From IMG/VR virus record IMGVR_UViG_3300037721_000031, positions 64,001-128,000 of that record: 64,000 nucleotides of DNA; one strand, written 5' to 3'. The position numbers and the translations under genes are program-made. Position 1 is the stretch's first letter; each line of letters opens with the position of its first letter. The notes under the pieces were generated by a model that was not told where the DNA came from, did no database searches, and was given only the letters and a program-made list of their open reading frames with translations. This DNA is from a virus (Duplodnaviria > Caudoviricetes). Positions 3,580 through 22,345 of the stretch are shown one piece after another.

Positions 3580-3879
3580 TTAAGATTCTACGATGCTAAT
3601 GTATTCTTTCAACCTATTAATTCTAGTTTGAATTTCTAGAACGTTACCATCTCTATTGTGCTGTTTTAGATCAGATAAACAGCTTTTAACGCCAGACAGA
3701 AGACTCTCCGGAGAGCCGTTATACGCACACTCTACATGGTCTTTGTAAATAGAGAATCTTGAAGTACTATGGACTATCATCGACACTTCACGTACTAAAT
3801 CAAGACTAGCTTTTTCAGAAGTGACATACAAGTGACTCTCATCATGCAGTTGTGTACCGATAATAGTAAATTTATTCAT
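3580..3879 (-). CDS. Small hypothetical protein, paralogue family MN(K/Q)FT, copy 3
   Basis: MNKFTIIGT...F.IY..HVEC...PE.LLS..K..L...RI..L.EYI shared with the two upstream ORFs. Confidence 0.75.
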   Translation of the reverse strand: MNKFTIIGTQLHDESHLYVTSEKASLDLVREVSMIVHSTSRFSIYKDHVECAYNGSPESLLSGVKSCLSDLKQHNRDGNVLEIQTRINRLKEYISIVES

Positions 3880-3911
3880 TGATAGCTCTCAGTGAAATAA
3901 TAATTGTGAAA

Positions 3912-4220
3912 TTAAGTTTCAGTAACTTTCATATATTCACGTAACCTATTGAGGTTCCTATCCACTCTTTCTTTATTAGTACTGTAGATAAGCTTCTTAG
4001 CTAAAGATTCTTGAAATATCAAGTGATTACTGACAGTGCTACGAAGCAACCGTGTATCGCATTGATTAACAGGCTCAACATGCCCCTCAAAAATCATATT
4101 CGGTAAATCACCGAATATGATTTTGAAAACTTCTTTTACTAGGTCAAGATTAGCATTTTCAGAAGTAAAACGGGTAAAAGCTCCACCACTGTGTGTGCAG
4201 ACAATAGTGAATTTATTCAT
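3912..4220 (-). CDS. Small hypothetical protein, paralogue family MN(K/Q)FT, copy 2
   Basis: MNKFTIVCT...EGHVE...LNRLREYM. Confidence 0.75.
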   Translation of the reverse strand: MNKFTIVCTHSGGAFTRFTSENANLDLVKEVFKIIFGDLPNMIFEGHVEPVNQCDTRLLRSTVSNHLIFQESLAKKLIYSTNKERVDRNLNRLREYMKVTET

Positions 4221-4516
4221 TTAGTACTTTCAGCAATCTCAATATACTCTCGCAGCATGCGGATGCGTGCTTCAGCGTAAAAGGTATATGCATCCTCGTC
4301 CTTTAAATAGGAGGTGAGGCGCTCTTTAGCAGCTGATAATAGTTGTTCTGGTACAGCACCATTAATACACTTGACGTGACCTTCGCAGATTACGTACGTT
4401 ACATCACGGTACACAATTCTTAGAACATCGTCCATCAGTCCTGAATTTACTTTATCAGAAACCACGTACAATGTAGATTTATTTTTATGAGTACCAATAG
4501 CTGTAAATTGATTCAT
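4217..4516 (-). CDS. Small hypothetical protein, paralogue family MN(K/Q)FT, copy 1
   Basis: MNQFTAIGT...EGHVKC...PEQLLS...RIRMLREYI. Confidence 0.75.
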   Translation of the reverse strand: MNQFTAIGTHKNKSTLYVVSDKVNSGLMDDVLRIVYRDVTYVICEGHVKCINGAVPEQLLSAAKERLTSYLKDEDAYTFYAEARIRMLREYIEIAESTK

Positions 4517-4584
4517 GGAAAGCTTTCAGAAACATTAGTTAAAGAATATGAAGTTATGTTGATTACTCCATGTTGCTCAAGTAT

Positions 4585-4659: not shown

Positions 4660-5436
4660 TTACCAACCCTTCCAAGCAGGAGCTTTTGCAAAAGCATTAA
4701 TTGTCTCTTGATCAGCTTGCCATCCCATAGTCTGGAACAATTCAGAGGCAGATAAAGAAACAGATTCTTGAGCAATACTACTACCAGCGTTTACCTTTAC
4801 ACCGCGCCTAATCTGGCTACGAGTAAACACTACATCTGAACCTAAATCTTCCAGTGCAGGAGATTTAAATTTCTCAGCTACAGCAATGCCTGGTTCATTT
4901 ACATAGTCAAATGTAACGACTGTCTTCAAAGTTCTCTTCAGTACACCACGGTCCATAAAGTCGTCTGTAAACGAACGAATGGAGAAACACACATTCTCTC
5001 TAGGATTCTTTAAAGAACGCTCTAACACGTGTCCAAACGGCCCAGAAGGGGCAACCTTCGACACAATCGCAATCACGGGACTACCGTTGTTATCCTTAAC
5101 ACGCTCGAAGTCTAAAAACAACTCAGCGTGATGACAACAAACTTGTTCTTCGTGGATAGATAATACACGATGAGCAAAGTCATCCATAGACTGACTAATT
5201 TGTCGTTTAGGATGACCGTACTCTCCGCGCAATGCACCGCGTTTAACACGCCGCATTAATTGACTAGAGTTTTGAAAAAGTTCGCAGGACTTATCGTACA
5301 CGTAATACTGACCGGCAGAATTGTACATATTCAAAGCGCCGACAATGCATTCGTAGTAACCGTCTTTATCCTGCTTAAGATTGCCGGTTTTATTTATGCC
5401 GACAAGAGAAGTACAACCAAATCGGACAGAATTCAT
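4660..5436 (-). CDS. Prohead (head maturation) protease, phiKZ gp175 / SPN3US gp245-like
   Basis: GEYGHP motif (T4 gp21-like), FSIRS, TFDYVNEPG; syntenic with vRNAP genes as in phiKZ-like phages. Confidence 0.85.
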   Translation of the reverse strand: MNSVRFGCTSLVGINKTGNLKQDKDGYYECIVGALNMYNSAGQYYVYDKSCELFQNSSQLMRRVKRGALRGEYGHPKRQISQSMDDFAHRVLSIHEEQVCCHHAELFLDFERVKDNNGSPVIAIVSKVAPSGPFGHVLERSLKNPRENVCFSIRSFTDDFMDRGVLKRTLKTVVTFDYVNEPGIAVAEKFKSPALEDLGSDVVFTRSQIRRGVKVNAGSSIAQESVSLSASELFQTMGWQADQETINAFAKAPAWKGW

Positions 5437-5493
5437 GATATTTTTTTATACTAAGATAATTTATAAACGTACTGTGAGGTACTCAATAGTTAA

Positions 5494-6216
5494 TCATTTT
5501 AAAAGAGATTCGATTCTTTCAACTCTTTCGGAAGGATTTACTAAAGCTGAAACAATACCATCTTGCATGTATGATCCGGCAAGTTTGTTGGTAGTGTTAG
5601 TAGCAGAATAAGCCACACTCTTCAGAGGAATAAACGCAGGTTTCTTATTTTTGATATCATCTGGGCTATGTATGGACTGACGATAGTATTCTGCTCTATT
5701 ACTTTGATTTCTACAGATAATACTAACCAGTAACTCAGTTACTTCTCTTTCACTACCAATATTAACACCACCAAATTTCTTAGCGGTATCAAATATCTTA
5801 GCAAGATCTTCGTAACTTAGAAATGCAGGTATTCTACCCTTAGCAAAGAATTCACTATAGATTCTGTAAGGAATCTTGTTATTCTGAACCACATTCATAT
5901 TTGGTATAACTGTGCTTCCAGCTGGGAAAGTGAATTCGTAATACTCATCGCCATCAATTACAATGCGGTTTACAGATTCTGGAGTTATACGTAAGGTAGT
6001 ATTGACAAGGGATATTGCAGAGTACTTACCTTCCATAACTAACAGATAGATACCTACAATGTTAGTTTCAACACCTACTGAAGCCAGTCCGCATTCTGAG
6101 AAGCGGACTGGTAAGTAGATGGCACAGCTCTTAACAGTAACTAACCTATCGTCCGCTAACTCGCGGAGATGGGCACGAACGTACTGTGGGTCTCGGACTA
6201 GACCTTTAATATCCAT
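5494..6216 (-). CDS. Probable virion RNA polymerase beta'-C subunit (SPN3US gp244-like)
   Basis: 240 aa, directly upstream of the protease; C-terminal SATNTTNKLAGSYMQDGIVSAL resembles the beta' C-terminal region; mainly synteny. Confidence 0.6.
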   Translation of the reverse strand: MDIKGLVRDPQYVRAHLRELADDRLVTVKSCAIYLPVRFSECGLASVGVETNIVGIYLLVMEGKYSAISLVNTTLRITPESVNRIVIDGDEYYEFTFPAGSTVIPNMNVVQNNKIPYRIYSEFFAKGRIPAFLSYEDLAKIFDTAKKFGGVNIGSEREVTELLVSIICRNQSNRAEYYRQSIHSPDDIKNKKPAFIPLKSVAYSATNTTNKLAGSYMQDGIVSALVNPSERVERIESLLK

Positions 6217-6233
6217 GCCCTTTCTCCTTTACA

Positions 6234-7655
6234 TTATCGAATAGCGCTAGCTACCTTAAACTGAGTAGAGATCCAATAAGCAATGTATTCCAAAGTAGCA
6301 ACAGCGGCTGCTTCTTTGACATCGGCTTCAGGACTGTGTGCTTTGATACGATTAATTCCATCCAAGATCTGGAATGCATCAGTCTTATAGAACCAGCTAT
6401 CACACATGAGCCGCAGTGCCCAGCTATACAGATCTGTTACTTCAGACTCTTTAGTAATAGCTAGTGCTGCATCGAATCGCTGTTTACAGAATTCTCTGTC
6501 TTGAATAGGTAGTACGGCTTCATCAGCACTACGCACCATAGCAGAAAATTCAATTGCGACAATTTCTTTTGCTGTATTAAACTTCTTATTAGCTACAGAA
6601 GTCTTTTGTACCATGCAGTAGGTTTCCCAGATCTGCTTATACTTATCGGCATTTTTGTTGATTTCATCAACAGTAAGAGACGGCATGGTATTCATCACGC
6701 TGCCAAAAATGACAGAATGCTCGCCACCATCGCTCAACCACTTACGATAAACTACGTCATTGACTTCGACAGAATTACGAGTAAATGAGCGAATAAGTAC
6801 ACCGTGCTTTTCATCACGATTAACACGATCAAGTTCATAGCCAAGCCGTACAGCGCATTGGTTACGAATCACTACCATTTCATCTTCGTATACCTTAAGC
6901 GATGTCTCAGTACCTTCAGGAGGACTGTCCCATAACTTTCTAGAGATGAGGAAGCCAACAAGGGCCATGTTCAAGCCATCAGCACTATTGAACAATGTCC
7001 ACATGTCTGAGTGACTACTCTTAGTGGTGAACATTTCTTGATAGACACTAATGAGCTTACCAGGCTCCATGCTTTGCACATACTGGCTGACTGACTCATC
7101 CAGAGATGTATTCCCTGACTTCATCCATTCAGTGATCTGTGCTTCATCAGCATCAGTTGATAAATGTGCGCCGGCAAGCGTCTTTTCAGGACTAACGTCT
7201 TTTGCACGCATGAATGAATCAACTAAAGAATCATCATACATCGGTGCCGGCAAACGCCATACCATGATCTCTAACTGGTTCATATCAGAACGCATTGTCT
7301 GCTCGATAGAGGTACCAATACGTTGTACCAGGTCATCGATAGTCGGAGCTACGACAGTGCGAGCATATGACAGATGTTTGGAGACAGCGTCACTTACGAC
7401 ACTTACTAAATCACCCATCTCCAGGTCATGAATACATGCGCCAGTAACCGGATCTGTACGATTAGTATCACTAACCACATTTTCAATCATGATCTTACGA
7501 GTACCTTGATCACCCCAAACATGATCATCGCTTGTGCTTGACGCCTCACACAGCTTATACAAGTTAGTACCGAGAATCGGAGTAACGATTAAATTTCGTG
7601 CGTCGAGTACTGCTGCTAATGGAGCAGTACTATTGAGTGCTTGCAATGACAGCAT
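6234..7655 (-). CDS. Virion head protein (SPN3US gp243-like)
   Basis: 473-aa ORF at the conserved position between beta-N and beta'-C/protease. Confidence 0.55.
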   Translation of the reverse strand: MLSLQALNSTAPLAAVLDARNLIVTPILGTNLYKLCEASSTSDDHVWGDQGTRKIMIENVVSDTNRTDPVTGACIHDLEMGDLVSVVSDAVSKHLSYARTVVAPTIDDLVQRIGTSIEQTMRSDMNQLEIMVWRLPAPMYDDSLVDSFMRAKDVSPEKTLAGAHLSTDADEAQITEWMKSGNTSLDESVSQYVQSMEPGKLISVYQEMFTTKSSHSDMWTLFNSADGLNMALVGFLISRKLWDSPPEGTETSLKVYEDEMVVIRNQCAVRLGYELDRVNRDEKHGVLIRSFTRNSVEVNDVVYRKWLSDGGEHSVIFGSVMNTMPSLTVDEINKNADKYKQIWETYCMVQKTSVANKKFNTAKEIVAIEFSAMVRSADEAVLPIQDREFCKQRFDAALAITKESEVTDLYSWALRLMCDSWFYKTDAFQILDGINRIKAHSPEADVKEAAAVATLEYIAYWISTQFKVASAIR

Positions 7656-9095: not shown

Positions 9096-9388
9096 CTTTA
9101 TGTCCACTGAGTTCGTTATTTCTCAGTCGGTGTGCTATGACACCCGCATTGACTTTCATCAATGAACAGACTATATCTTCACCCTACAGATAGGGTGTTT
9201 CCTATTTCCACTCACTTGAGTGTACACCGTGATAAGCGGCTAGTCGTTGAACGTTCTTCCTAAGTTAATTAGGAGCTTCGCTGCGGATTACCCAATCCTT
9301 ATATCTTTTACCATACCCGGGTAGTTAGTCCGGCCATCAATGCATTGCTGTCATCGACTTGGTGTATAAGGCTCTTAGGGTGTCCCCG

Positions 9389-10426
9389 TCAGTTAAGGAA
9401 AATACCATCTGACCATTTCTGATCAGTGGGACCATATGGATAATAACCATATCGAAAGTTATCAGAAAAAACTTTACTTCCTTGAGTCTTCAGTCTGTAA
9501 TCCAAAGCAGTTGGTGATATTCCCATTGCTTTGGCACAATCTGAAGCAGAATGATAATAGCCGATGTTTCCGGTTTTCTCACATATCAGTTTAACAATTT
9601 TCTTTGCGTATCCAGAAGTATTAAATTCTAGCAAAGGGTCGTTAATCTGACACCAAGGTGTTTCATCTGAAGACCACTTAATTTGAAGTAGTCCGGGTAA
9701 AATTGACTGACTTTTCCTCGATAACCATTGAGAGACAGTAGATGGCAGAATATTTTCTTCTTCACAGAAGTCTGTTATTCTTGCATACTCTTTGACAGTA
9801 TTGTCAAAGACGTTCCTAACCAAGATACTCTTGGATGTACTGTTTTTCTTCAATTCGTGTTCGATGGAATTTGGAATGTACCACGGTTCTTCACTGTATT
9901 CTCTGTATTGTTTCTTTTCAGGGAATATACGTTTTTCACCGATTTTAACTCGATACCCAATAGCGTCTTTTGACATACTGTAATATCTTGCGCATTCGAT
10001 AATACTCGGAAAATGCATCACAATCCCAGTAACAGTATTTCTTACTGAAATTGGCACACATTTTTCAGTGAGTCCATTCTTACCAGCATGCTCTGCATTT
10101 CCTTGGTAAGTAGTCCATTCTAAATTGTCAAGGCGATCATCGCCTTTTATGCCATTTTTGTGATTTACAACAAGATCATCGTAAGAGCAATCCATGGGTT
10201 TGAATACCATGCAAAGCACTCTATGTCTACCCAACGTTGTGCGTTCACTACTATCTTTGTACAAGAAGTAGTTGTAGTACCCGTCAGGATTTCGATGATA
10301 ATGTCTGATCACATTGAGTTTCTGGTCTATAATAACACCTTCCGGCGAAATCACGTATCGTGAAAATCCAGAAATCTCATAAAACCCTTGATAACATTTC
10401 GATGCAGTTGGCTCGAATAAATTCAT
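9389..10426 (-). CDS. Intron-encoded HNH homing endonuclease with NUMOD-like C-terminal repeats
   Basis: HRVLC...VVNHKNGIKGDDRLDNLEWTTYQGNAEHA HNH motif; repeated 'V...F.SI.ECA' DNA-binding modules. Confidence 0.88.
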   Translation of the reverse strand: MNLFEPTASKCYQGFYEISGFSRYVISPEGVIIDQKLNVIRHYHRNPDGYYNYFLYKDSSERTTLGRHRVLCMVFKPMDCSYDDLVVNHKNGIKGDDRLDNLEWTTYQGNAEHAGKNGLTEKCVPISVRNTVTGIVMHFPSIIECARYYSMSKDAIGYRVKIGEKRIFPEKKQYREYSEEPWYIPNSIEHELKKNSTSKSILVRNVFDNTVKEYARITDFCEEENILPSTVSQWLSRKSQSILPGLLQIKWSSDETPWCQINDPLLEFNTSGYAKKIVKLICEKTGNIGYYHSASDCAKAMGISPTALDYRLKTQGSKVFSDNFRYGYYPYGPTDQKWSDGIFLN

Positions 10427-10451
10427 TTTCTACTCTGCGAAGTTATATCAC

Positions 10452-10480
10452 ATTATAGAGTTAATTTCATTCTAATTCAA
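10452..10480 (-). promoter_or_regulatory. Sigma70-like promoter inside the intron 5' region, upstream of the HNH ORF
   Basis: TTGAAT (10480-10475), 17-nt spacer, TATAAT (10457-10452), 26 nt before the ATG at 10426. Confidence 0.5.
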
Positions 10481-10494
10481 CTATATCCATTTTA

Positions 10495-13400
10495 ATCATC
10501 ACGATCTGACGCTACTGATAAGAGTGCTGCGGTAGAAAACAATGCAGTAGCTCCGGTTTTACCAATAACATATCTGTTAGATGTTCCACGTAAAGAATTA
10601 AATTGAGGATCTGCACTTGTGTATGTATTGATAGCTACATCTGAAGAATCCACTGTTGCCTCTGAAATAGTACCCATATCGTTTTTATGGTAAGCACGAT
10701 TACGTTTCACCATTGAACGACCAGTACGTCCACCAACACCTGAGAATGTTACAGCTTCAGATTCTTTCAAATTCTGAATTGGATTTATTTCAAGGTTTTG
10801 ATTTTTAGCAGAATCTTCATTGATAGCTATCCATACGGCGTACGGATTTAAATCGATGGCGGCAGTAGTCTTATTTGCTCGAGCCCCATGCATTCTAACT
10901 GATCTAACTAGTTCAGAATAAAGAATACCTGCAAAACGCTCATATCCCTTAACTCTCATAAATGCAGGGTCAAGTTCGTAAGGATGTTGATCGTCTGTCA
11001 ATAACTCACCACTACGCAGTAAGAGCTTTGTGAATTCTACTGGTTCATTCATCTGCTCTAAGAGATCCTTAGTAATTGGATCAACGAACATTTGATTTAG
11101 TAGATCCAACTCTCTCATGTACCTCACACCTAAGCCAGCATCTTCAAGTAAATTGAAGTATACATCTTTACGATTGAACTCATGTGCAGGATAGTTATAA
11201 GTACTATCTTCGTGATCTTGCCAACCAGCAAGGATCATTGTGGCTAAGACATCGTCTCTGGAGAATATCCAAGTTTCGTCTTGAAATACAATACTCCATT
11301 CATCAGCTGCTAAACTAGGTCTTTGACCAGCAGGAATGATGCGTGGGTTTACTTTCAGGATCTTAAGCAGGTTATCTAACCCAATCAAGTAACCAAGTAC
11401 AACGCCTAGAGAGATGGCCTTACCGAATACCTTTAACTCAGCGTGTTCGATTGGTGCCTTATTTAAACGCAGTCCTATGAGATCCTCTAATGATGATAAT
11501 GCATGAAGTCTATTACCATTAGGACTACCATCAACAGTATAGAGTGCACCATTTCGACCCATCACCATCAGATCACCATCTTCACTCATTCCGATTAGTG
11601 TATTACCACCTTCTTCAACATCTTTTAAACTAAGATCACCCATTATTAAGTGTCTACGGTTTATCTCAAAGTTGAGTTTCCAGTTCTTATCGTTTATACG
11701 TAATGTAAAACTACGAAAGTTCTTGGCGATCGTGGTGTATAACTTTGGAGCAGCCACGCTTGGTTGAAATGCATCTCCAGTAACAACATCTGTAATCAGA
11801 TCTTGATCACTAAGGCCGATCAGCATAATAGCATCAGTAAGCCAACGACCATAGTCGTTAACTTTCTTCTCACTACGAGCAACAAAGATCTTTCCATAGT
11901 AGCTAGTCAAGGCTACTTGATTTGGAGAAATCTTACGGATCGGAAGATCGCTCTTTTGTTTACGAGTTCTGTAGTTAACATTGTTAACACGGAAGCTGCC
12001 GTCTTCAGTTACTTTTGGAATTCTGAAACGCAGTGTCGATGTAGCTCCTTGTAATGGCTTTACTTTGACGGTGTAGCTGTTGTAAGCCATCGAGACATTT
12101 TCAACTTGTTCGACCTGATAATCTAGTACGATAATTCCAGCTTTCTGCAGGTTCATTACCATACCAGCAATATCTCGCTGCATTACTTTAGTAATGTATT
12201 TTTCATCGAATTCCATCAGTGACGATTTAAGCATGGTCTTATCGACTAAGGTGCTTTTATCAGGAATAGAAGGAGATTCTTTAATGTCGAGTAGGTCTCT
12301 AGGAATGTTAATAAACTGATCTAATGTGGTACCATCAGGAGCAGTAATACTCTTATATGTCCCAGCTAACTCTAGATACTTACGATAATCCGCAGCAGAT
12401 AATCCTCCAGAGTCAGCCAGAGCATTACATCTGGCAATGATGGAATCTTCAAGGGACTGTCCAGTAGGAATTACTGTAGCAATATCGAAAACTTCTTGAT
12501 CGTCAGTTAATTCGGTATCGTTAGAACTAACAGCAATATCTTCAAGTGTTTCTAAGTCAGCATCTACCTGTGCATCTATGTTTACGATGTCTTCTGGTGA
12601 CTGCACTTCTTGTTCGTCGTCTTCTTCAGGACTAACTACTTCGATGTCGTCATTATCCAGATTAGAAGTAAACGAATCATCAGTATTATCAGTTACACTA
12701 GTTGCTGTTTCTTGTACTTTACTTACAGCCGCAATAGTATCAGAGTTCTCTTCATCTTTACTCGGTTCATTAACAATACCGGCACGAGCCTCGAACAAAC
12801 TCATTGATAACCGAATGAACAGCTTCTGCATCCGATCAGCGGGATGACCGTGAGCGTTAAGAGTAGAATCTTTTTCTAACTCTTCTTTGGTTGCTTTACG
12901 CCAGACATTCAATTGTCCGAGATTAAGTACAAACCAGCGTCCTGACTCTCTAAATATTAGATTCACACGATCTAAGTTTTTAACAGGAATTTTAGAGATC
13001 GCTGATTCTTCTCTCTTAGTACCCAACCATTGCCATACTTGTAACAGAATGATTGATTCTGACGATGTGAATATCCGTGCTGACTTCTGATCGATAGCTC
13101 TCTCAGCCTGACGTAATTGTGTCAAGCTAGGTAACGTCTTAGGAATATCGAATTCGATGAACTGATGTCTATCAGTAGTCTCAGCTACCTCAGCTACTTT
13201 AGTAAATACAGTAGAAATTAAATTATTCCACCGGTAATACGACGTATAGTAATTACGCAGGTATTTGTATAACCTGTGTATGAAACTATAGTTATACACT
13301 AGTACAGACTGTGGATCACGAACAGCACTCTCTAAAGATTTGAAAGGTCTGAATCGTGGATTCTTAGCTCTGTGACTACGGATTACGCGGTTAACGTCTA

Positions 13401-13656
13401 TCAGTAAACGCCTTGGATTACCATCGGTGTGCTTAAGTTCTGTAACTGTGTCTATAGTAAATGGTCTAGCTGAACTCTTGATAGCATTCTCTGATTCAGT
13501 AGGTCCATCATCCAAAGGACCTGTACCTAAATAATGATAGATTGAATTGCGTGGTAAGTCTAACAATTCTAATCTAGACAGAGGAGGCTTGATTAGTTGA
13601 TCAATCTTACGAATACCGTATTTTCTATAAAAAACTGGATACTGTAGTGTGGTCAT
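10495..13656 (-). CDS. rpoB: Virion RNA polymerase beta-N subunit, exon 1 (phiKZ gp178-like)
   Basis: 1054-aa ORF with EAVTFSGVGGR and GTISEATVDSSDV beta motifs; ends SDRDD at the intron 5' splice site, where TAA is the first intron triplet. Confidence 0.9.
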
Positions 13657-13670
13657 ATTTCTATTAGTAC

Positions 13671-15296
13671 TTAATCATCACCCGTAAGATTACGACATAC
13701 GAGTTCGACAGTGTGTACTCCTGTACGATTAATAAACTGTCCGTCAGTACCTACGTAGGCACGACGACTGTTGAAAAACTCTTCACATTCTTCTATAGCC
13801 TCTTGAGAGTACGCTACAGTATAGCTGGAAGTGTCGCCATCGAAGTCGGCACCCATACGGGCGAGTTTATTGACAGCAGGAATAAGAGAGTTTACAAATG
13901 CTGCTCCTTTTACAGGGAACTCATAAGCCATTGCATCATCACTCATTGGCTGCCATTGCTCATTAAGCTGCATTCGTCTTTCAGATGTAAGAGTTACTCG
14001 AAGATAAGTTCTACTAGGATAAATAGAACCAATGCCCGTAATGGGATATCGAGTAACCATTGCTGGATATGTATTAGCCTTCTTATAAACAGCAATGTAG
14101 AACAGTTCAGCTAGTGAAATTGGTCTCACATCCTTCTTACTACGAGAAGAAGGTAGTTCAGAAATATCATGCATAATCCTGAATGTATTGTCAGGACCTA
14201 GGTACAGTAATGCTATATAACGGCCGTCAATTTCTAAAGGTACGTCGCGAATACTTTCTTCCTTGAAAGAAGAAATAATTCTTTCAATACCTTCGTTTGT
14301 AGCCCATTGATTATAATAGCGACTATGTAATAGTACCTCTTCTGACTCTAGTGTTTCTTTATTTACTAGACGAGCTGGCTGGTTTACATCAGGAAAGATA
14401 GATTCCAATAACCTACGAATTTGAAATACTGTTACCGGCAATGTAGCCTTCATGAACTGATATAACCCTACAATTGTAGAGTTGACATCAGGATTACCTT
14501 TTCTACCAAGATATGGTACAGAGGTATCCATAGCAGTAATCACGTTTCTAGTACCATTGAATACTCTGCGAGATGCCCACTTTCCTAGCAACAGTTTCTT
14601 CTTACCTTCAATTAGTGAGAAGATCATGTCGTAGATAGTGTTGAAAATTATCTGCATCTGATATCTCGGAGTGTCTAGCGCATCGACCTGAGTTTTTACA
14701 GTAGACTCATTAATAGTGTTTGAAATAGATATCAGTTGACGATAAGGCTTATTAATTTCATCTTCACTAATTCTGTTGTAGTTATCTATTTCAATATCAC
14801 GTAGTCCAGCAGGTAAAACAGCTACTTTGTCTGTTAGCGCTCTATTACCATATTTCTTAATAAGTAATACAGCTTGCTCTCTGTTAATTGAACTGGTAGT
14901 ATCGAAATGAATCTTTAACCAATGCTCAATAAAAAAAGCATACCCTGTAGAGCCATCGATGGCGCTAGCTTTAACAAAGTCTCTCAGTTCTTCATCAAAG
15001 CGACCATATCCTTTACCGGATAAGATGTCGCCATAGAGATGTTTCATTTTGACTAATACGTTAAAAATAGCCGGATGCAAAATAGGTACTTTTATATCAA
15101 TGTATGCGAAGCGAAGGCTACGTCGTTCATCACCTACTCTTCCAAAGATAGATGTTGAAAATAGACCTTCTTCTGAAAAATCAGAAGATCCACCTTCAAA
15201 GATATCTAGCTTTGATATTTTCTTTAAACCACGTAACTTCTCAGGAGTTAGGTTTAAAAGGTCAACGTTAAACGGGACATCGGATGGTTTTGACAT
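13671..15296 (-). CDS. rpoC: Virion RNA polymerase beta'-N subunit (phiKZ gp180-like)
   Basis: Catalytic GADFDGD motif, GLFSTSIFG, LPAGLRD, RVFNGTRNV, RYP motifs. Confidence 0.92.
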   Translation of the reverse strand: MSKPSDVPFNVDLLNLTPEKLRGLKKISKLDIFEGGSSDFSEEGLFSTSIFGRVGDERRSLRFAYIDIKVPILHPAIFNVLVKMKHLYGDILSGKGYGRFDEELRDFVKASAIDGSTGYAFFIEHWLKIHFDTTSSINREQAVLLIKKYGNRALTDKVAVLPAGLRDIEIDNYNRISEDEINKPYRQLISISNTINESTVKTQVDALDTPRYQMQIIFNTIYDMIFSLIEGKKKLLLGKWASRRVFNGTRNVITAMDTSVPYLGRKGNPDVNSTIVGLYQFMKATLPVTVFQIRRLLESIFPDVNQPARLVNKETLESEEVLLHSRYYNQWATNEGIERIISSFKEESIRDVPLEIDGRYIALLYLGPDNTFRIMHDISELPSSRSKKDVRPISLAELFYIAVYKKANTYPAMVTRYPITGIGSIYPSRTYLRVTLTSERRMQLNEQWQPMSDDAMAYEFPVKGAAFVNSLIPAVNKLARMGADFDGDTSSYTVAYSQEAIEECEEFFNSRRAYVGTDGQFINRTGVHTVELVCRNLTGDD

Positions 15297-15505: not shown

Positions 15506-18500
15506 ATGGCAACGAAGAATAATTCAAAGACAAAGTACGAATCGAATGATTTTAATATAGATTCTAGTCTTGACTTACCAGATTTTGATTTTGATGCTAC
15601 TGATATTAAAGAAGATCGTAACCCAGTTATTTCAGCCGCGAAGTCCGCAGCACAAGGTGTTGCAGATTCTGTATTCAATACTGGTGTGATTCGTTCTACT
15701 ATTAATAAAACTCTACCAAAAGAGTATGGTAGTATTTTAAATATCACAGATCATACAACTGACTCCATACGTTCACTATACGATACCGCGGCTAAGGAAT
15801 TTAAACCAGCTAAGAATGACCTTAAGAGAATAGCTGGGCGTGTAGCGCCAGCAGTAGAAGGTGTTCTTGGTAAGAAGATTGCTGACAAGCTTAGAGCAAT
15901 GTCTAAGTCAGGTGAATCGGTAGGTATTGACCTTAGTATTGAAAGGCAGCGGGACGACAGTCTCGTTATGGAGCTTGGTAATATATTTAAGGCTCAGGCA
16001 GATGTTGCTGATCAAAAAGAAGCTACTGATGAAAGTAGAGAGCAATTTAGAGACAGTATTGATCAAGTAAGGCATCGTAACGAGATTAGTCAGCTAGACA
16101 GTATTCGAGTAGGTATTGAGCAGCTTACTAGTTACCAAGATAATGTCTTATCTAATTATCAGAAGAAATCTCTTGAGTTACAATTCAGACAGTACTTTGT
16201 CACTGCTGACTTACTAGAGATTACTAAGAAATCAGCTGCTGAACAAGATACGAAATTGCAAGGTATCTTGAAGAATACTGGATTACCTGAATTTGTTAAA
16301 ATTAATGAGTCTGAAAGATTCTCAGAATTAGCTCGTAATAAATTCTATTCAGATATCCGCGACAGTCTCTTCGGAGAGATGGATGGTACTGAATACATAA
16401 AGAAATTTGTTAATAATGTTAAGAAATCATTAACGGCAAATATCCAAGAATGGGCACAATCAGCCAGTCAAATTACGTTCATGGCTGATATGGCTACAGG
16501 GGCCATAAGTGACGGTGAAGGTCCTAGTAAAGCTCAACTGCTAGGAGGTGTTGCTGGCGGGCTAGTTGGTGATTATGCTGTAGGTAAAGGGCAGGAGAAG
16601 CTTAAGAAACTTCTTGAAGGTAATAAGGAATTAGCTAAAGGTGCCGAGAATGTAGCTTACAGAGTTAACAATTCTGCACAACTAGCTGATGACTACATGG
16701 CTGAAGCTGACTGGGGTGGATTCGAAGGACTTCGTCAGTTCTTAGATGATAACCGTCCACAGATTATGGCAGACACGGCAATGGATGCAGATTCTCTGTC
16801 GGAGATGCATAAGCCAATGCCGTTTAGTCGCGCTGCTAGTAAATCTATCATTGAAATCATTCCAGGTTACTTGGCTCGTATTCATCAAGAAATACAAATT
16901 CTTAGAACAGGTAATGAGTCTATAGGTTTGTCAGCGTACGACTATAATACTAACAAGTTCACTACTCAGAAGAATTTGAGTAAAAAGATAGTTAACGACC
17001 TTATAGTTAAAGATGATGGTAATGGTTCTAACAGTGTTAGTGAAATTAAGAAACGTCAAAACGATATCTTAAAGATAGTTGACCCTGAAGAGAAGCTTAC
17101 AGGTACTCAGCGTAAGGCTATTAGTGACACGCTACTTCGTACGTCTGTTACTCGTAGATCTACAGATGCTAAGCATTTATCTAATAAACATTTCTGGCGT
17201 AAAGCTGGTAGCGAAGCAGATGGTATTGCTAATGTTTTTGCGAAGATGCTTGAAACTGATAAAAACGGTAAGCGTGCTGACACGTTACCAGCTATTAGAA
17301 ATCAGAATATTATTTCTAATGCGGTACGCGGATTGACAAAGGGTATAGATGATCCTAGGGCTAAAATACAAGAGATGATCAACACTGGACAGTACAGTGT
17401 TCTTAGAGATTCTGGTCTTATTGACGACGATAACAGAATTTCAATTGACAATCTTGTAAAGATACTTAGCGGTGATTCAGATAAGGTACAAACAGAAAGC
17501 GATAGAGCGCTTGGTACTGTTAAAAATAAGAGTGTAAATATTGGTAAAAATGTTCAACGTGACAAACCAGTAAGAGCTTTTAGTACGACAGTTTCTAAAG
17601 TTGAAGCGATAGCGCGCATTGATCCAGAAGCTTTTGAACCATTATCTAAAGCAATATATTCGCTACAAGACAGTTTTAAAGTATCTTCCACGCTGAAGCC
17701 TGTTGAGACCTTAGTAGAGTTGGTTACTTCAATAGACAAGCGTCTTAGCGAGGGATTAGCAGTTTATGGCGATACAACTGGCCGCATACTCACTGGCGAT
17801 AGGAATCAGCCAGGTTGGTTCTCTGAAAAAGTAAAAGAAACTCGTAAGAAGTGGTCAGAAATTTCAATAGGTGAACTAGGTGCTAAAGCTAAAGAAGTTG
17901 GCGCTAAAGGCTTTACTTATGTAAAAGACCACATGAGTAAGCTCGCTAGTACTGCTGGAAATATTGCAGTTAAGGCACGTGATCTTGTTCAGACTACTTT
18001 ACAAAGAGCTGCTGACAGGATGGGTGATATCTACGTAGGTAGTGAGTTAAAGCCACGGTTGACACGTGCTAAAATGCTAGCTGGAGAATACATTGACCAG
18101 GCTACTGGTAAGGTACTATCTTCTCTCGATGATATTAAAGGCACTGTTATAGATAGAGATGGTAACATCATCTTGAGCATTGAGGATTTAAAAATAGCTC
18201 AATTGCGCGGTAAGACGATCGAGTATCTGAAAGATAAAATTCAAGGACTTGGTGGTTTGCTAGCGAAAGCAGCATTACAAGGTAGTACCATGTTGGGCGG
18301 GCTGTACGGTAGAATGTTCTCTATCGGTATGGTTGGCTTACATAAAGCAAAGCTACTGCTGCCACCATTCGATGTGTATGTTAACGGTAGTATGGAAAAA
18401 CCATTACTATACGCGTCTCAGTTTAAACTTGGATCATACTTCTCTAAGAAAACAGGTAATGTAGTTAAGCATCCTAGAGATATCGACGGACCTGTTCTTG

Positions 18501-21500
18501 ATAAAGATGGTAATATCATTGTCACAGAAGAACAAGTAAATAAGGGCTTAGTTGATAGGAACGGAATCGCTATATCTAACATACTTGGTCGTGGTCTGAA
18601 CAAAGTTAAAGAACTTGGCCTTGCAGGCTTTTCTTTAATTAAGAAATTTGGCATGTCTGTTAAGAATTTCGCCACAGATGCATTTGGTGCATTAGGTGAA
18701 ATGGTCAAAGGCTTATTCAACGGCTTTTCTTACTTTGGTGAGAAGTATGTTGAGATTAATAAAGACCAACTTGACGTTCAGTTAGAAATCTTGAAATTGT
18801 TACAGGAACGTTTACCTAAGAAAGTTACTGGTGATTCAGACGGAGACGGTGTTAGAGAAGGATCCGTTCAAGACATCATTAACCGTAGAAAAGAAGAGAA
18901 AAGTAAGAAGGAAGAAAAGCTGTCTGATAAAGCTAAGACCACTGGTACTGGTGGATCTAGTCTCTACGGAGCTATTGCTGGTCTCTTCAAAGGTAAGAAG
19001 AAAGATGAGGGTGAAGAAGGTGGTAAAGATAGTAGTCTTTTATCTGACGCTGCTGATGCTGCCGATATCTATGATTCCGTAAGAAGTGACAAGAGTGGTA
19101 TTCCTGATTCTAAAGACACTGTCAAAGGCAAGGGTGTTGGTAAAGTTACTGCAAGAGCGACAACTAAGGTAGGTCGTTTACTCCAAGGCGCTAAAGGGCT
19201 AGCAGGTAAAGCCGCTGGTACAATTGGTAAAGTTGGTGGAACAGCAGTAGGTGCCGCAGCGTCATTCTTTGGTTTAGGAAGTGTTCTAGGTAAAGCCGGC
19301 GGTGCTCTGGGTAAGATTGCTACAGTTGGTGGTTCAGCCATTGGCAAAGTGGGTATGGGTCTTGGTCGGTTAGGCTTAGCAGCATTAACTAGTGGTGGTA
19401 CTATAGCTGTAGCGCGCGCGGCTTTAATGGGTTTGACTGGCGCACTGTTCTCACCGATAGGCTTAGCAGCATTAGGACTTACTGCCGCTTACTACGGATA
19501 TAAATATCTAACTCGTAAGAAATTGGAAGTACTGAATAAAGTTCGCTATGTTCAGTATGGTTTCAATGCTAATGACGAAGATCACTTTAAAGCAGTGTTT
19601 GAACTGGAAGATTCTTTAGAAGAGCATGTTAAACTTGATAACGGAACTGCTAGTTTAGATGATAAGAAAATCGATCTTAACGAATTAGCTGAACCGTTTG
19701 GTATTAAAGCTACAGATAAAGAATCTGTTCGTAAATGGGCGTACTGGTTTAATGATCGTTTCAAGCCAATCTTCTTAGCTCATAAGTCAGCGTTGCGAGC
19801 AATTAAACCTGATCTGAAGATTGCAAATGTAGATGGGTCAAAACTCACGCCGCAGGAAAAGTTAAACTACTTAGGTGCGACAGAATTACCTGGGGCTAAT
19901 TATAGTCTAACTACATCACCATTTGTAGATTTAGAAAGATTGTCTTCAGATAGTCGTGCAGTTCAGGCTCAGATTGAAATTGCTAGAACTACAATTCAGC
20001 AAGAAGTAAAGACTGGTAGTACTTCTAAAAATACAGTCGCTACAGCTACAGCTATGGCTACATTGTCTGCTAGTGGTCTTAATAAAGATGGTTCTGTTAA
20101 TAACAATAATCAACTGAATACTAGTAATGCTAAATCACTAGGGTTAAGCTCATTAGTTAACGGACTGAATAAAAGAGAAACTATCAAAGACGCTAGTAAC
20201 AGTATTTCTGCACAAAGTACGTTATCCTCTGATTACCTGTTTACAGGCGATAAAGGTCAGATGGATGCTTTAACTGTTATCCGTTTTAAAGCTTACGGCT
20301 TAATAACAATGGATGCGGAAAAAGTAAAAGCGTTACGTTACTTGGAAGTTTATGTTGCACGCAGAACAAACTTTAGTAAAGACGGTGCTGAATACGCTCA
20401 AGATGTAGAGGCTCTGTTAGAAGATGTAAAGGTTTATTTCGGTATTAGCGGGGCTCGTTCACCACGCGGCTATAAGTGGATAACTTGGTTCCGTTCACGA
20501 TTCTTACCTGTATTCTTGAACTTTTCTACAGCTGTAGAAAAAGCAACAAGAAAAGCAGACGTTGTCCAAGCTGAGAGAACACTTACATCTGAACAAGCTG
20601 TGGCTGTAGCATCGGCTGTCTATACAACTACTTCTATCTATGACGGTAGAAAGATGTCTGTTTGGAAAATAACAGATTGCTCACCGTGGGACAACTATCC
20701 TCTTAACGGTAATGACTCTTCAATTGAATTAAATTTAGAAGCTTTGAAAGAAGCAACTAAGGCTGTAATTCGTGGGGAACATAAGTCAGACAGTATTCGT
20801 CAGAAGACAGCCGATAATCGCAACAGAGCTGTTAATGAAGGTAGTACTTCTGATAACAAGACCCGTTCAGAATTAGGTAGTGGTGCAGTTGTGATGTATG
20901 CTAAGCCAACTAGTATTACTGAAAAGCAACGTGGTGAATCGTCCGTTTATGGTAATAACCAACCAGAGCTATTGCGGCAAGATGGGCGCAATGTTCGTGC
21001 TGTTGGTGAGTACCTGACTGGAGTAAAGATAAACCATCCAGGGGCCGGTACTGGCGGTGATATTAACTCATTACCTGATCCAGGAACAGCTACTGGTGCA
21101 GAAGCCATAGTTCCGTTGTTACGCGAAGTAGCAAAGATGACCGGTGTGGATCCGAAAATCTTGATAGACATGTGTGCGATTGAATCTAAATTTGATCCAC
21201 AAGCAAGACCATTTGATCCACGTACTGGTAAATATCTGTCTAGTGCAGTAGGCTTGCTACAATTCCTGAAAGGAACATGGGCAGACCAACTTCGTGCGAA
21301 TGGGTCTAAGTATGGTATTGCAATAGGGACACCACCAACAGATGCTAGAGCGAATGCATTAATGGGTGCCGAGTTCATTAAGAGCAATATGAATTACTTA
21401 AAGAGCAAAGTCAAACGAGATCTGACAGAAACTGATGTTTACTTGGCTCATTTCTTAGGAGCGGAAGGAGCTTCTAAATTCTTGCAGATGGATCGTAATA

Positions 21501-22345
21501 CGCCAGCAGCTACAACAATGCCAGATGAGGCGCAAGCTAATCCAGGTGTGTTCTTTGATAAAACTGGTAGGACTCGTACAGCTGGTGAGATTTACGAACA
21601 TTTTACTAAGAAAATATCTAATCAGGCTAGAGATCTCGGTGTAACTGATTCAATGTTTACAGAAGTGCAGCAAAGTACTAATAAGAAATCTAAAGTACAA
21701 GATTCATCACAAAGTACTACAGCAGCGGTTCCAGTAAGCAACTCGGTGTCAGGTAATCAAAAGTCTCAGGCTACATCTAGTGCAACATTAGGTACTAGTT
21801 CCAAGACAAACATGATGAGTACCCCGACTGTTGATAGTGGTACTACTACATCTAGTCAACCTAGTAAGTCAAACGCGGTCAATGCTGTTAAGAGTATTAT
21901 TGATTCACCTGCAAAGACTTCCGCAGTCATTAAAGAGCAATCTAGTAAATTGCCAACAAATGCAGGTATTGATAGTTCTAATGAAACTGTTATTGAGACG
22001 CAGTCAAAGAAGCAAGAAGCTTCAGCAGCACAGGTGATTCGTAAACCAGAAGGCTTTATGGGTTTCCAACCTAGGATACGTCCTAGCCCACAAGAAATCC
22101 AGGCCATCGAACTTGCTAATCGTCCTAATATGGAGAAAGGTATTAATGATGTTAATCGAACGTTACTGCAATCATTGGGTGTGCATGAGGAATCACGTGA
22201 CCTGTTACGCAGGATTGTAGATAATTTATCATCAGTACCTGTAACGAATGATGTCAAAGCTCCCGCGACATTACCACAAGCAGTACAACCTCGTATTCCA
22301 AAAGAAGCGACTAAGGTCCCTATCAACATGGGTCGTAGAGGTTAG
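15506..22345 (+). CDS. Giant tail protein with C-terminal lytic transglycosylase (phiKZ gp181-like, tape-measure-like)
   Basis: 2279 aa; SLT motifs MCAIESKF, SSAVGLLQF..GTW, ANALMGAEF, YLAHFLG at about 21170-21480; Gly/Ala-rich central segment; divergent from beta'-N as in phiKZ. Confidence 0.88.
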   Translation: MATKNNSKTKYESNDFNIDSSLDLPDFDFDATDIKEDRNPVISAAKSAAQGVADSVFNTGVIRSTINKTLPKEYGSILNITDHTTDSIRSLYDTAAKEFKPAKNDLKRIAGRVAPAVEGVLGKKIADKLRAMSKSGESVGIDLSIERQRDDSLVMELGNIFKAQADVADQKEATDESREQFRDSIDQVRHRNEISQLDSIRVGIEQLTSYQDNVLSNYQKKSLELQFRQYFVTADLLEITKKSAAEQDTKLQGILKNTGLPEFVKINESERFSELARNKFYSDIRDSLFGEMDGTEYIKKFVNNVKKSLTANIQEWAQSASQITFMADMATGAISDGEGPSKAQLLGGVAGGLVGDYAVGKGQEKLKKLLEGNKELAKGAENVAYRVNNSAQLADDYMAEADWGGFEGLRQFLDDNRPQIMADTAMDADSLSEMHKPMPFSRAASKSIIEIIPGYLARIHQEIQILRTGNESIGLSAYDYNTNKFTTQKNLSKKIVNDLIVKDDGNGSNSVSEIKKRQNDILKIVDPEEKLTGTQRKAISDTLLRTSVTRRSTDAKHLSNKHFWRKAGSEADGIANVFAKMLETDKNGKRADTLPAIRNQNIISNAVRGLTKGIDDPRAKIQEMINTGQYSVLRDSGLIDDDNRISIDNLVKILSGDSDKVQTESDRALGTVKNKSVNIGKNVQRDKPVRAFSTTVSKVEAIARIDPEAFEPLSKAIYSLQDSFKVSSTLKPVETLVELVTSIDKRLSEGLAVYGDTTGRILTGDRNQPGWFSEKVKETRKKWSEISIGELGAKAKEVGAKGFTYVKDHMSKLASTAGNIAVKARDLVQTTLQRAADRMGDIYVGSELKPRLTRAKMLAGEYIDQATGKVLSSLDDIKGTVIDRDGNIILSIEDLKIAQLRGKTIEYLKDKIQGLGGLLAKAALQGSTMLGGLYGRMFSIGMVGLHKAKLLLPPFDVYVNGSMEKPLLYASQFKLGSYFSKKTGNVVKHPRDIDGPVLDKDGNIIVTEEQVNKGLVDRNGIAISNILGRGLNKVKELGLAGFSLIKKFGMSVKNFATDAFGALGEMVKGLFNGFSYFGEKYVEINKDQLDVQLEILKLLQERLPKKVTGDSDGDGVREGSVQDIINRRKEEKSKKEEKLSDKAKTTGTGGSSLYGAIAGLFKGKKKDEGEEGGKDSSLLSDAADAADIYDSVRSDKSGIPDSKDTVKGKGVGKVTARATTKVGRLLQGAKGLAGKAAGTIGKVGGTAVGAAASFFGLGSVLGKAGGALGKIATVGGSAIGKVGMGLGRLGLAALTSGGTIAVARAALMGLTGALFSPIGLAALGLTAAYYGYKYLTRKKLEVLNKVRYVQYGFNANDEDHFKAVFELEDSLEEHVKLDNGTASLDDKKIDLNELAEPFGIKATDKESVRKWAYWFNDRFKPIFLAHKSALRAIKPDLKIANVDGSKLTPQEKLNYLGATELPGANYSLTTSPFVDLERLSSDSRAVQAQIEIARTTIQQEVKTGSTSKNTVATATAMATLSASGLNKDGSVNNNNQLNTSNAKSLGLSSLVNGLNKRETIKDASNSISAQSTLSSDYLFTGDKGQMDALTVIRFKAYGLITMDAEKVKALRYLEVYVARRTNFSKDGAEYAQDVEALLEDVKVYFGISGARSPRGYKWITWFRSRFLPVFLNFSTAVEKATRKADVVQAERTLTSEQAVAVASAVYTTTSIYDGRKMSVWKITDCSPWDNYPLNGNDSSIELNLEALKEATKAVIRGEHKSDSIRQKTADNRNRAVNEGSTSDNKTRSELGSGAVVMYAKPTSITEKQRGESSVYGNNQPELLRQDGRNVRAVGEYLTGVKINHPGAGTGGDINSLPDPGTATGAEAIVPLLREVAKMTGVDPKILIDMCAIESKFDPQARPFDPRTGKYLSSAVGLLQFLKGTWADQLRANGSKYGIAIGTPPTDARANALMGAEFIKSNMNYLKSKVKRDLTETDVYLAHFLGAEGASKFLQMDRNTPAATTMPDEAQANPGVFFDKTGRTRTAGEIYEHFTKKISNQARDLGVTDSMFTEVQQSTNKKSKVQDSSQSTTAAVPVSNSVSGNQKSQATSSATLGTSSKTNMMSTPTVDSGTTTSSQPSKSNAVNAVKSIIDSPAKTSAVIKEQSSKLPTNAGIDSSNETVIETQSKKQEASAAQVIRKPEGFMGFQPRIRPSPQEIQAIELANRPNMEKGINDVNRTLLQSLGVHEESRDLLRRIVDNLSSVPVTNDVKAPATLPQAVQPRIPKEATKVPINMGRRG

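Follow-up and report, generated by a model that had tools for sequence, protein, structure and literature searches.

The closest described counterparts of the element analysed here lie in the virion RNA polymerase genes of other large phages. In PhiPA3, likewise a nucleus-forming phage, the gp210 intron sits between gp211 and gp209, right after two conserved aspartates, and its HNH endonuclease nicks phiKZ gp178 at this DD site; mutation of gp210 His-82 abolished nicking, and phiKZ progeny were 3.7-fold lower in co-infection (Birkholz et al., Science 2024, PMC11620839). Phage 201phi2-1 (gp273/274) has an intron at the same site, for which two spliced reads have been reported (PMC11512511). Introns at this site are also found in the beta genes of Serratia phage 2050HW/Haymo and Vibrio phage C-ZP2022, where the beta parts are annotated only as separate genes. 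The related enzyme I-HmuI of Bacillus phage SPO1, of 174 residues, is encoded by an intron that resides in a DNA polymerase gene. For the T4 td intron, which encodes I-TevI, a hairpin protects splicing and a promoter inside that hairpin frees translation (PMC2988022).

The window, a 64,000-nucleotide stretch of the 266.6-kb genome of an uncultured phage, had been predicted from its letters to hold a group I intron with an HNH endonuclease gene within the virion RNA polymerase beta gene. The intron is real and correctly placed, and it is a new example of the PhiPA3 gp210-type element. The features of the locus are as follows.

10495 to 13656, minus strand: exon 1 of the virion RNA polymerase beta gene (phiKZ gp178 / PhiPA3 gp211 homologue), 1054 codons, ending SDRDD
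9096 to 10494, minus strand: group I intron, 1399 nt, phase 0, IA2-like, with its terminal G at 9096
9389 to 10426, minus strand: HNH homing endonuclease ORF, 345 aa, with N88-H89, N101 and N110, looped out of P1
7977 to 9095, minus strand: exon 2 of the beta gene (PhiPA3 gp209 homologue), 372 codons, starting PKRTNF

The 5' exon ends in GATGAT, with the expected U at 10495, exon 2 starts with CCAAAG, and the first bases of the intron, TAA at 10494, form the stop codon of the 1054-aa ORF. Joining the exons (3162 + 1119 nt) gives 1426 aa in frame, with no internal stops and the junction SDRDD/PKRTNF, and a single PHROG profile for the beta subunit (phrog_3148, length 1424) spans both pieces at consecutive positions, 2–1050 and 1051–1421. 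The ORF list does show the beta parts as two genes, as the original prediction had remarked (minus strand: 1054 codons at 13656–10492, 345 codons at 10426–9389 and 376 codons at 9107–7977), and the first 4 codons of the 376-aa ORF come from the intron tail; the correct annotation is one 1426-aa subunit rather than two genes. A search with the Rfam group I model RF00028, which the original prediction had proposed as a check, matched 9147–9452 on the minus strand with 78.8 bits (E 2.4e-18; cut-off 50 bits), the only such match in the genome, and bears out the complete P/Q/R/S core that had been claimed. Both boundaries are exact: two natural, near-identical intron-plus and intron-minus pairs break at exactly this nucleotide, with identities of 99.3% and 100% for L055/L054 and of 99.6% and 99.9% for L176/L164. 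An intron-skipping joint was not seen in the contigs of two DNA runs, which, being contigs, cannot show absence.

Judged from gene content alone, the host is a nucleus-forming jumbo phage. The genome encodes homologues of phiKZ chimallin (gp054, E 7e-29), PicA (gp069, 1e-28) and PhuZ (gp039, 8e-28) together with a non-virion RNA polymerase homologue, which places it among the chimalliviruses. Next to the beta gene lie those for the head protease and the 541-aa beta-prime subunit, in the same order as in phiKZ, PhiPA3 and 201phi2-1, and among isolates the phage is closest to Burkholderia phage FLC9 and Ralstonia phages RP12, RP31 and FLC1-1B (beta 59–69%). The run from which it derives is probably a sediment metagenome. 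Several neighbouring features were recorded. The beta-prime gene of the window (13671–15296) is continuous, unlike the gp180-like beta-prime gene of contig L111, whose end carries a group I intron (6216–6523). At 15506–22345, on the plus strand, a 2279-aa ORF points away from the RNA polymerase genes and lies where phiKZ has gp181, a tail-associated lytic transglycosylase; the corresponding ORF of L111 gives a weak SLT match. Contig L016 carries a GIY-YIG gene (3675–4571, minus) on the opposite strand directly after its intron-split beta gene.

The original prediction had also called for a comparison of the insertion site with known introns. The junction aligns base for base with those of the introns of PhiPA3 (gp210), 201phi2-1, 2050HW and C-ZP2022. 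The PhiPA3 intron interrupts the same gene at the same nucleotide after the DD codons, with a 3' exon that starts MKR rather than PKR; the 201phi2-1 intron shares the site and a group I core (87.4 bits) but is only 336 nt long and lacks an endonuclease gene. The 2050HW/Haymo and C-ZP2022 introns encode HNH proteins 46% and 35% identical to the one described here, in host genes that are distant (36% over the last 300 residues of exon 1). The site is empty in phiKZ (gp178), FLC9, RP12 and RTH11. Among viral contigs found with an exon query, 9 of 53 distinct alleles carry an intron at the DD site and 44 are empty; we counted occupancy solely on these loci because intron-bearing rows had partly been found through an HNH query. 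In all nine occupied alleles the intron directly follows a U; at this position 17 of the 44 empty ones have a C. Full, shortened and ORF-less copies are all present at the DD site, the shortened or ORF-less ones including those of 201phi2-1, L060, L074, L078, L089 and L142; the L142 insertion, of 659 nt, retains only a remnant of the HNH gene, and further short ORF-less versions were seen in L126, L153, L161, L169 and L173. Other insertions, of 297–1962 nt, lie about 10–17 nt downstream of the DD site in the same motif (L006, at about 4944–6378, L067, L080, L086, L097, L100, L148, L149 and L155), and one of these downstream insertions, in phiKp_32, is itself an Rfam group I match. With these further insertions so close by, the DDPKRVN codons resemble a hot spot with several insertion sites.

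The ribozyme was delimited by the RF00028 match, folding and alignment, and its elements, all on the minus strand, are these.

10484 to 10497, minus strand: P1 5' strand, with exon GAU (10497–10495) at the splice site and intron 10490–10484 forming the P1 extension
9430 to 9442, minus strand: internal guide sequence GUC (9432–9430) and 3' strand of the P1 extension (9442–9436)
9147 to 9429, minus strand: ribozyme core
9426–9409, minus strand: P2
9401–9396 with 9203–9198, minus strand: P3
9392–9386 with 9286–9281, minus strand: P4
9381–9290, minus strand: extended P5
9274–9258, minus strand: P6a
9247–9241 with 9173–9168, minus strand: P7
9240–9226, minus strand: P7.1
9222–9209, minus strand: P7.2
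9197–9180, minus strand: P8
9164–9147, minus strand: P9
9096 to 9146, minus strand: 3' domain, with P9.1 (9146–9128), P9.2 (9127–9106), a possible short P9.0 and the terminal G (9096)

The P3, P7, P8 and P9 pairings named in the original prediction all form in this sequence, as does P4. The G of the guide pairs with U10495 to give a U-G pair at the 5' splice site, and the P1 extension (10490–10484 with 9442–9436) implies that the endonuclease gene is looped out of P1. A guide GUC before P2 recurs in the same-site introns wherever it can be located, while their own, differing 5' ends pair just upstream of it. An alternative guide, GUUAUUAU (9447–9440), could pair with the exon and was rejected because, unlike the GUC before P2, it is not conserved. 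P10 amounts to at most 1–2 bp, and its register is not consistent. All 24 same-site introns examined have a terminal G and a preceding exon that ends in U.

Covariation was assessed in an alignment of this intron with 23 same-site relatives. Paired cells numbered 148/150 in P2, 137/138 in P3, 136/138 in P4, 132/132 in P7, 89/92 in P7.1, 107/114 in P7.2, 134/161 in P8 and 77/108 in P9.2, so that P2, P3, P4, P7, P7.1 and P7.2 are 94–100% paired and P8 83%. Two-sided changes, whose counts are inflated by the kinship of the sequences, were found in P2 (62), P3 (37), P7.1 (55), P7.2 (47), P8 (36) and P9.2 (31). P9 and P9.0 align poorly across the relatives (31% and 37% paired) and hence rest on this sequence alone. 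Introns of the phage-type subgroup IA2 have P7.1 and P7.2 hairpins between P7 and P3 and a bulged C in P7. Here P7.1 and P7.2 are paired with two-sided changes and C9246 is unpaired in P7, and we take these features to group the intron with the IA2 phage introns.

Relative to the PhiPA3 ribozyme, with which it shares the GUC guide, that of the window is about 60% identical (192/318), belongs to another clade and has a longer P5. The nearest ribozymes are those of same-site introns, and derivation specifically from the DNA polymerase intron of Pseudomonas phage HPP-Temi is unsupported. That intron (L003, about 5975–6325) lies in a different gene, falls in the same ribozyme clade and is 77.5% identical over 160 nt, extended P5 included. 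The next-nearest ribozyme, in L056, is 76% identical, but its HNH protein is only 41% identical. An identical 20-nt P9.1 stretch is shared with the phiKp_32 intron.

The HNH ORF that had been proposed is intact and of the I-HmuI type, with an I-HmuI-like N-terminal half followed by NUMOD/I-TevI-type DNA-binding modules; Pfam HNH_3 at residues 68–111 and an I-TevI-type DNA-binding module at 291–314 both scored above their cut-offs. N88, H89, N101 and N110 are invariant in 29 homologues. The protein is 46% identical to PhiPA3 gp210 over 317 aa (E 2e-103), and H89 aligns with the catalytic histidine, H82, of gp210. In both phages the ORF lies in the P1 loop and runs into the ribozyme, further here, to the P element, its final ~19 codons being shared with the guide sequence, P2 and P3; the 3' end of the I-TevI ORF likewise overlaps ribozyme structure. 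A dN/dS of about 0.09 against four close homologues indicates purifying selection, as expected of a working enzyme. The structure model (pLDDT 87.7) gave I-HmuI (PDB 1u3e) as its only significant structural match (E 8.4e-11), and I-HmuI was also the sole significant match by sequence (E 1.9e-5). The two share the HNH nuclease fold and motif at 22% identity, and the difference in length (345 aa against 174) points to extra DNA-binding modules in the protein of the window. A single-sequence HNH scan of viral contigs gave no match, whereas a scan with an HNH alignment did find matches. A weak second HNH-like match (G000:C1:165131–165340, minus; L013; 34% over 70 aa, E 0.005) belongs to an open frame of 149 aa that has no group I match in its vicinity. 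The protein cluster of the intron-encoded enzyme also includes a 268-aa product of a JGI contig, probably the same gene with a later start called. The coding stretch 9746–10100 (minus) folds more stably than shuffled sequences (z −4.4; ribozyme z −3.1).

Upstream of the HNH gene lie a hairpin that resembles the one of I-TevI and a promoter-like site.

10429 to 10459, minus strand: hairpin over the HNH ribosome-binding region, −10.1 kcal/mol, z −2.7
10452 to 10480, minus strand: promoter-like site TTGAAT-17-TATAAT

Similar hairpins are present in most same-site introns, and the leader z is below −1.5 in 14 of 20; PhiPA3 too has a hairpin over the ribosome-binding site, and in the td intron such a hairpin masks it on long transcripts. 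I-TevI differs in belonging to the GIY-YIG family and in having a T4 late promoter that has been mapped, compared with the promoter-like site here. Sites of this sigma70-like type were found 7 times against 5.4 expected, alone within chance, but 14 of 19 same-site introns have a TTGAA within their initial 60 nt. The leader lacks the phiKZ late TATG motif and matches the middle motif only in part, and a search of this genome for the leader motif indicated that it is not a common promoter motif there. By analogy with T4 I-TevI, a short transcript that begins within the hairpin is the probable source of the enzyme.

To follow the history of the intron we compared the window with L111, its sister row in the beta tree. 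The HNH is 94% identical and exon 1 74%; at the DNA level, identity is 59–78% over ~9 kb of flank (about 70%), 82% just upstream of the site and 87–94% in the intron. When only codons coding for the same amino acid in both sequences were considered, synonymous differences fell from 253/437 (0.58) in the upstream exon to 40/109 (0.37) in the last 120 codons of exon 1 and 58/312 (0.19) in the HNH gene (Fisher tests, p 1e-4 and 4e-28). The intron-less L117, at a similar distance, has no dip in the last 120 codons (64/102, 0.63, p 0.64). A gradient with L111 that is flat in L117 fits an intron gained laterally together with co-converted upstream sequence, the probable tract being the following.

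10495 to 10854, minus strand: last 120 codons of exon 1, probable co-conversion tract, limit approximate

As far as sequence comparison goes, the divergence dip shows lateral transfer and is compatible with any driver and with either direction; what the comparisons show is lateral gain of the intron between quite different phages. Between L055 and L054, the 109 nt immediately upstream of the site hold six mismatches, and the 3.2 kb on the downstream side are free of them; the nearest HNH lineage, L014 (SH-aLRT 100), resides in a beta gene of just 41% identity. On a host tree of 73 rows (a quick IQ-TREE run, no bootstrap) intron presence and absence needs 19 changes, and presence is not more clustered than in shuffles; the change count used the corrected label for L100 and the shuffle test the label before correction. 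The series of filled, ORF-less and empty sites suggests that intron acquisition is common over evolutionary time. Contigs L111 and L112, from different metagenome runs, both end inside the intron, so the comparison spans the 5' flank and intron: there are 2 internal differences in 9.9 kb of flank and 47 in 1.33 kb of intron (L111 9939–11270), with an HNH dS of 0.12. The contrast suggests that one intron allele replaced another, or an assembly mosaic; both are short-read contigs, which weakens the replacement reading, and either could, with low probability, be a chimeric assembly. In run X2, a few short pieces are 99–100% identical to the intron near exon pieces at ~80%; they are suggestive, but being small and unlinked they carry no weight in this reading.

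Taken together, these data make it very probable that this nucleus-forming jumbo phage carries a mobile self-splicing IA2-like group I intron of the type known from PhiPA3 gp210. We infer splicing from group I chemistry: the beta pre-mRNA would fold P1 with exon GAU on guide GUC and the ~1-kb endonuclease gene looped out, and guanosine attack followed by joining at the terminal G would yield the mRNA for the 1426-aa subunit. [quoted passage not shown] By analogy with gp210, the enzyme would enter the phage nucleus and nick uninterrupted DD/PKR alleles. Where a co-infecting relative is similar enough to recombine, repair would copy the intron with a few hundred upstream exon bases (homing); where repair fails, the nick would plausibly harm the rival, as gp210 harms phiKZ.

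Other readings of the locus were weighed against this one. That splicing is absent, with beta made as two separate proteins and a free-standing HNH gene between them, is extremely unlikely. Both halves do appear as ORFs, and long-read RNA of phiKZ revealed no splicing of predicted introns under the conditions tested (PMC10914365), but the ribozyme is complete and covarying, the exons join exactly in frame, the start of the second ORF falls within the folded intron, an intron at precisely this point is what sets near-identical relatives apart and the same-site 201phi2-1 intron has reported spliced reads (PMC11512511). We also give little credence to vertical inheritance of an intron that has lost mobility, its similarity to relatives reflecting slow evolution or general recombination over the region. 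The window and L111 are indeed sister rows that both carry the intron; however, HNH synonymous sites are about three times less diverged than those of the host genes, the dip in the last exon codons is missing from the intron-less control and L111 and L112 differ almost solely within the intron. The synonymous-site contrast largely refutes this reading.

A more serious contender, though one we hold to be doubtful as the main explanation, is that the element is kept chiefly as a weapon, its endonuclease killing, to the benefit of the host phage, intron-less co-infecting relatives that are unable to use this genome for repair; this is in line with what the original prediction suggested. Site and enzyme family are those of gp210, with its 3.7-fold effect on phiKZ progeny (PMC11620839), the host belongs to the chimalliviruses, purifying selection acts on the enzyme, and there are relatives that lack the intron and keep the site intact (L117; 44 of the 53 alleles sampled are empty). 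Homing alone also predicts purifying selection, however; the intron has spread laterally among phages ~70% identical, and the common ORF-less or shortened same-site copies fit a selfish cycle of invasion, decay and loss. A weapon and a homing intron are not mutually exclusive, and both explanations may hold. Since the comparative data show lateral acquisition, ordinary homing is at least part of the role of this intron, and interference by it against intron-less relatives is plausible from the gp210 precedent.

The report of PhiPA3 gp210 interfering with phiKZ that the original prediction referred to is real (Birkholz et al., PMC11620839), and with the same insertion site and endonuclease family the link is closer than had been stated. 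Site, enzyme family and proposed role were already known, and comparative signs of lateral homing are added here. Birkholz et al. propose that divergence and separate nuclei stop the victim gaining the intron, in work that covered one round of infection only (PMC11620839). We see no conflict with their findings because PhiPA3 and phiKZ, with 60% DNA identity in exon 1, are more diverged than the window and L111. These comparisons suggest homing between phages that are closely related and, if it occurs at all, interference between those further apart. The balance of evidence leans slightly towards DD-site introns homing between nucleus-forming phages ~70% identical in flank, taking a few hundred bases of upstream exon along and maybe replacing resident introns (L111 against L112). 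If true, the barrier of nuclear shell and divergence in the interference model would be leaky, and the divergence at which homing gives way to killing could be measured. Occupied, ORF-less and empty alleles form a natural series of graded targets for finding where homing turns into interference.
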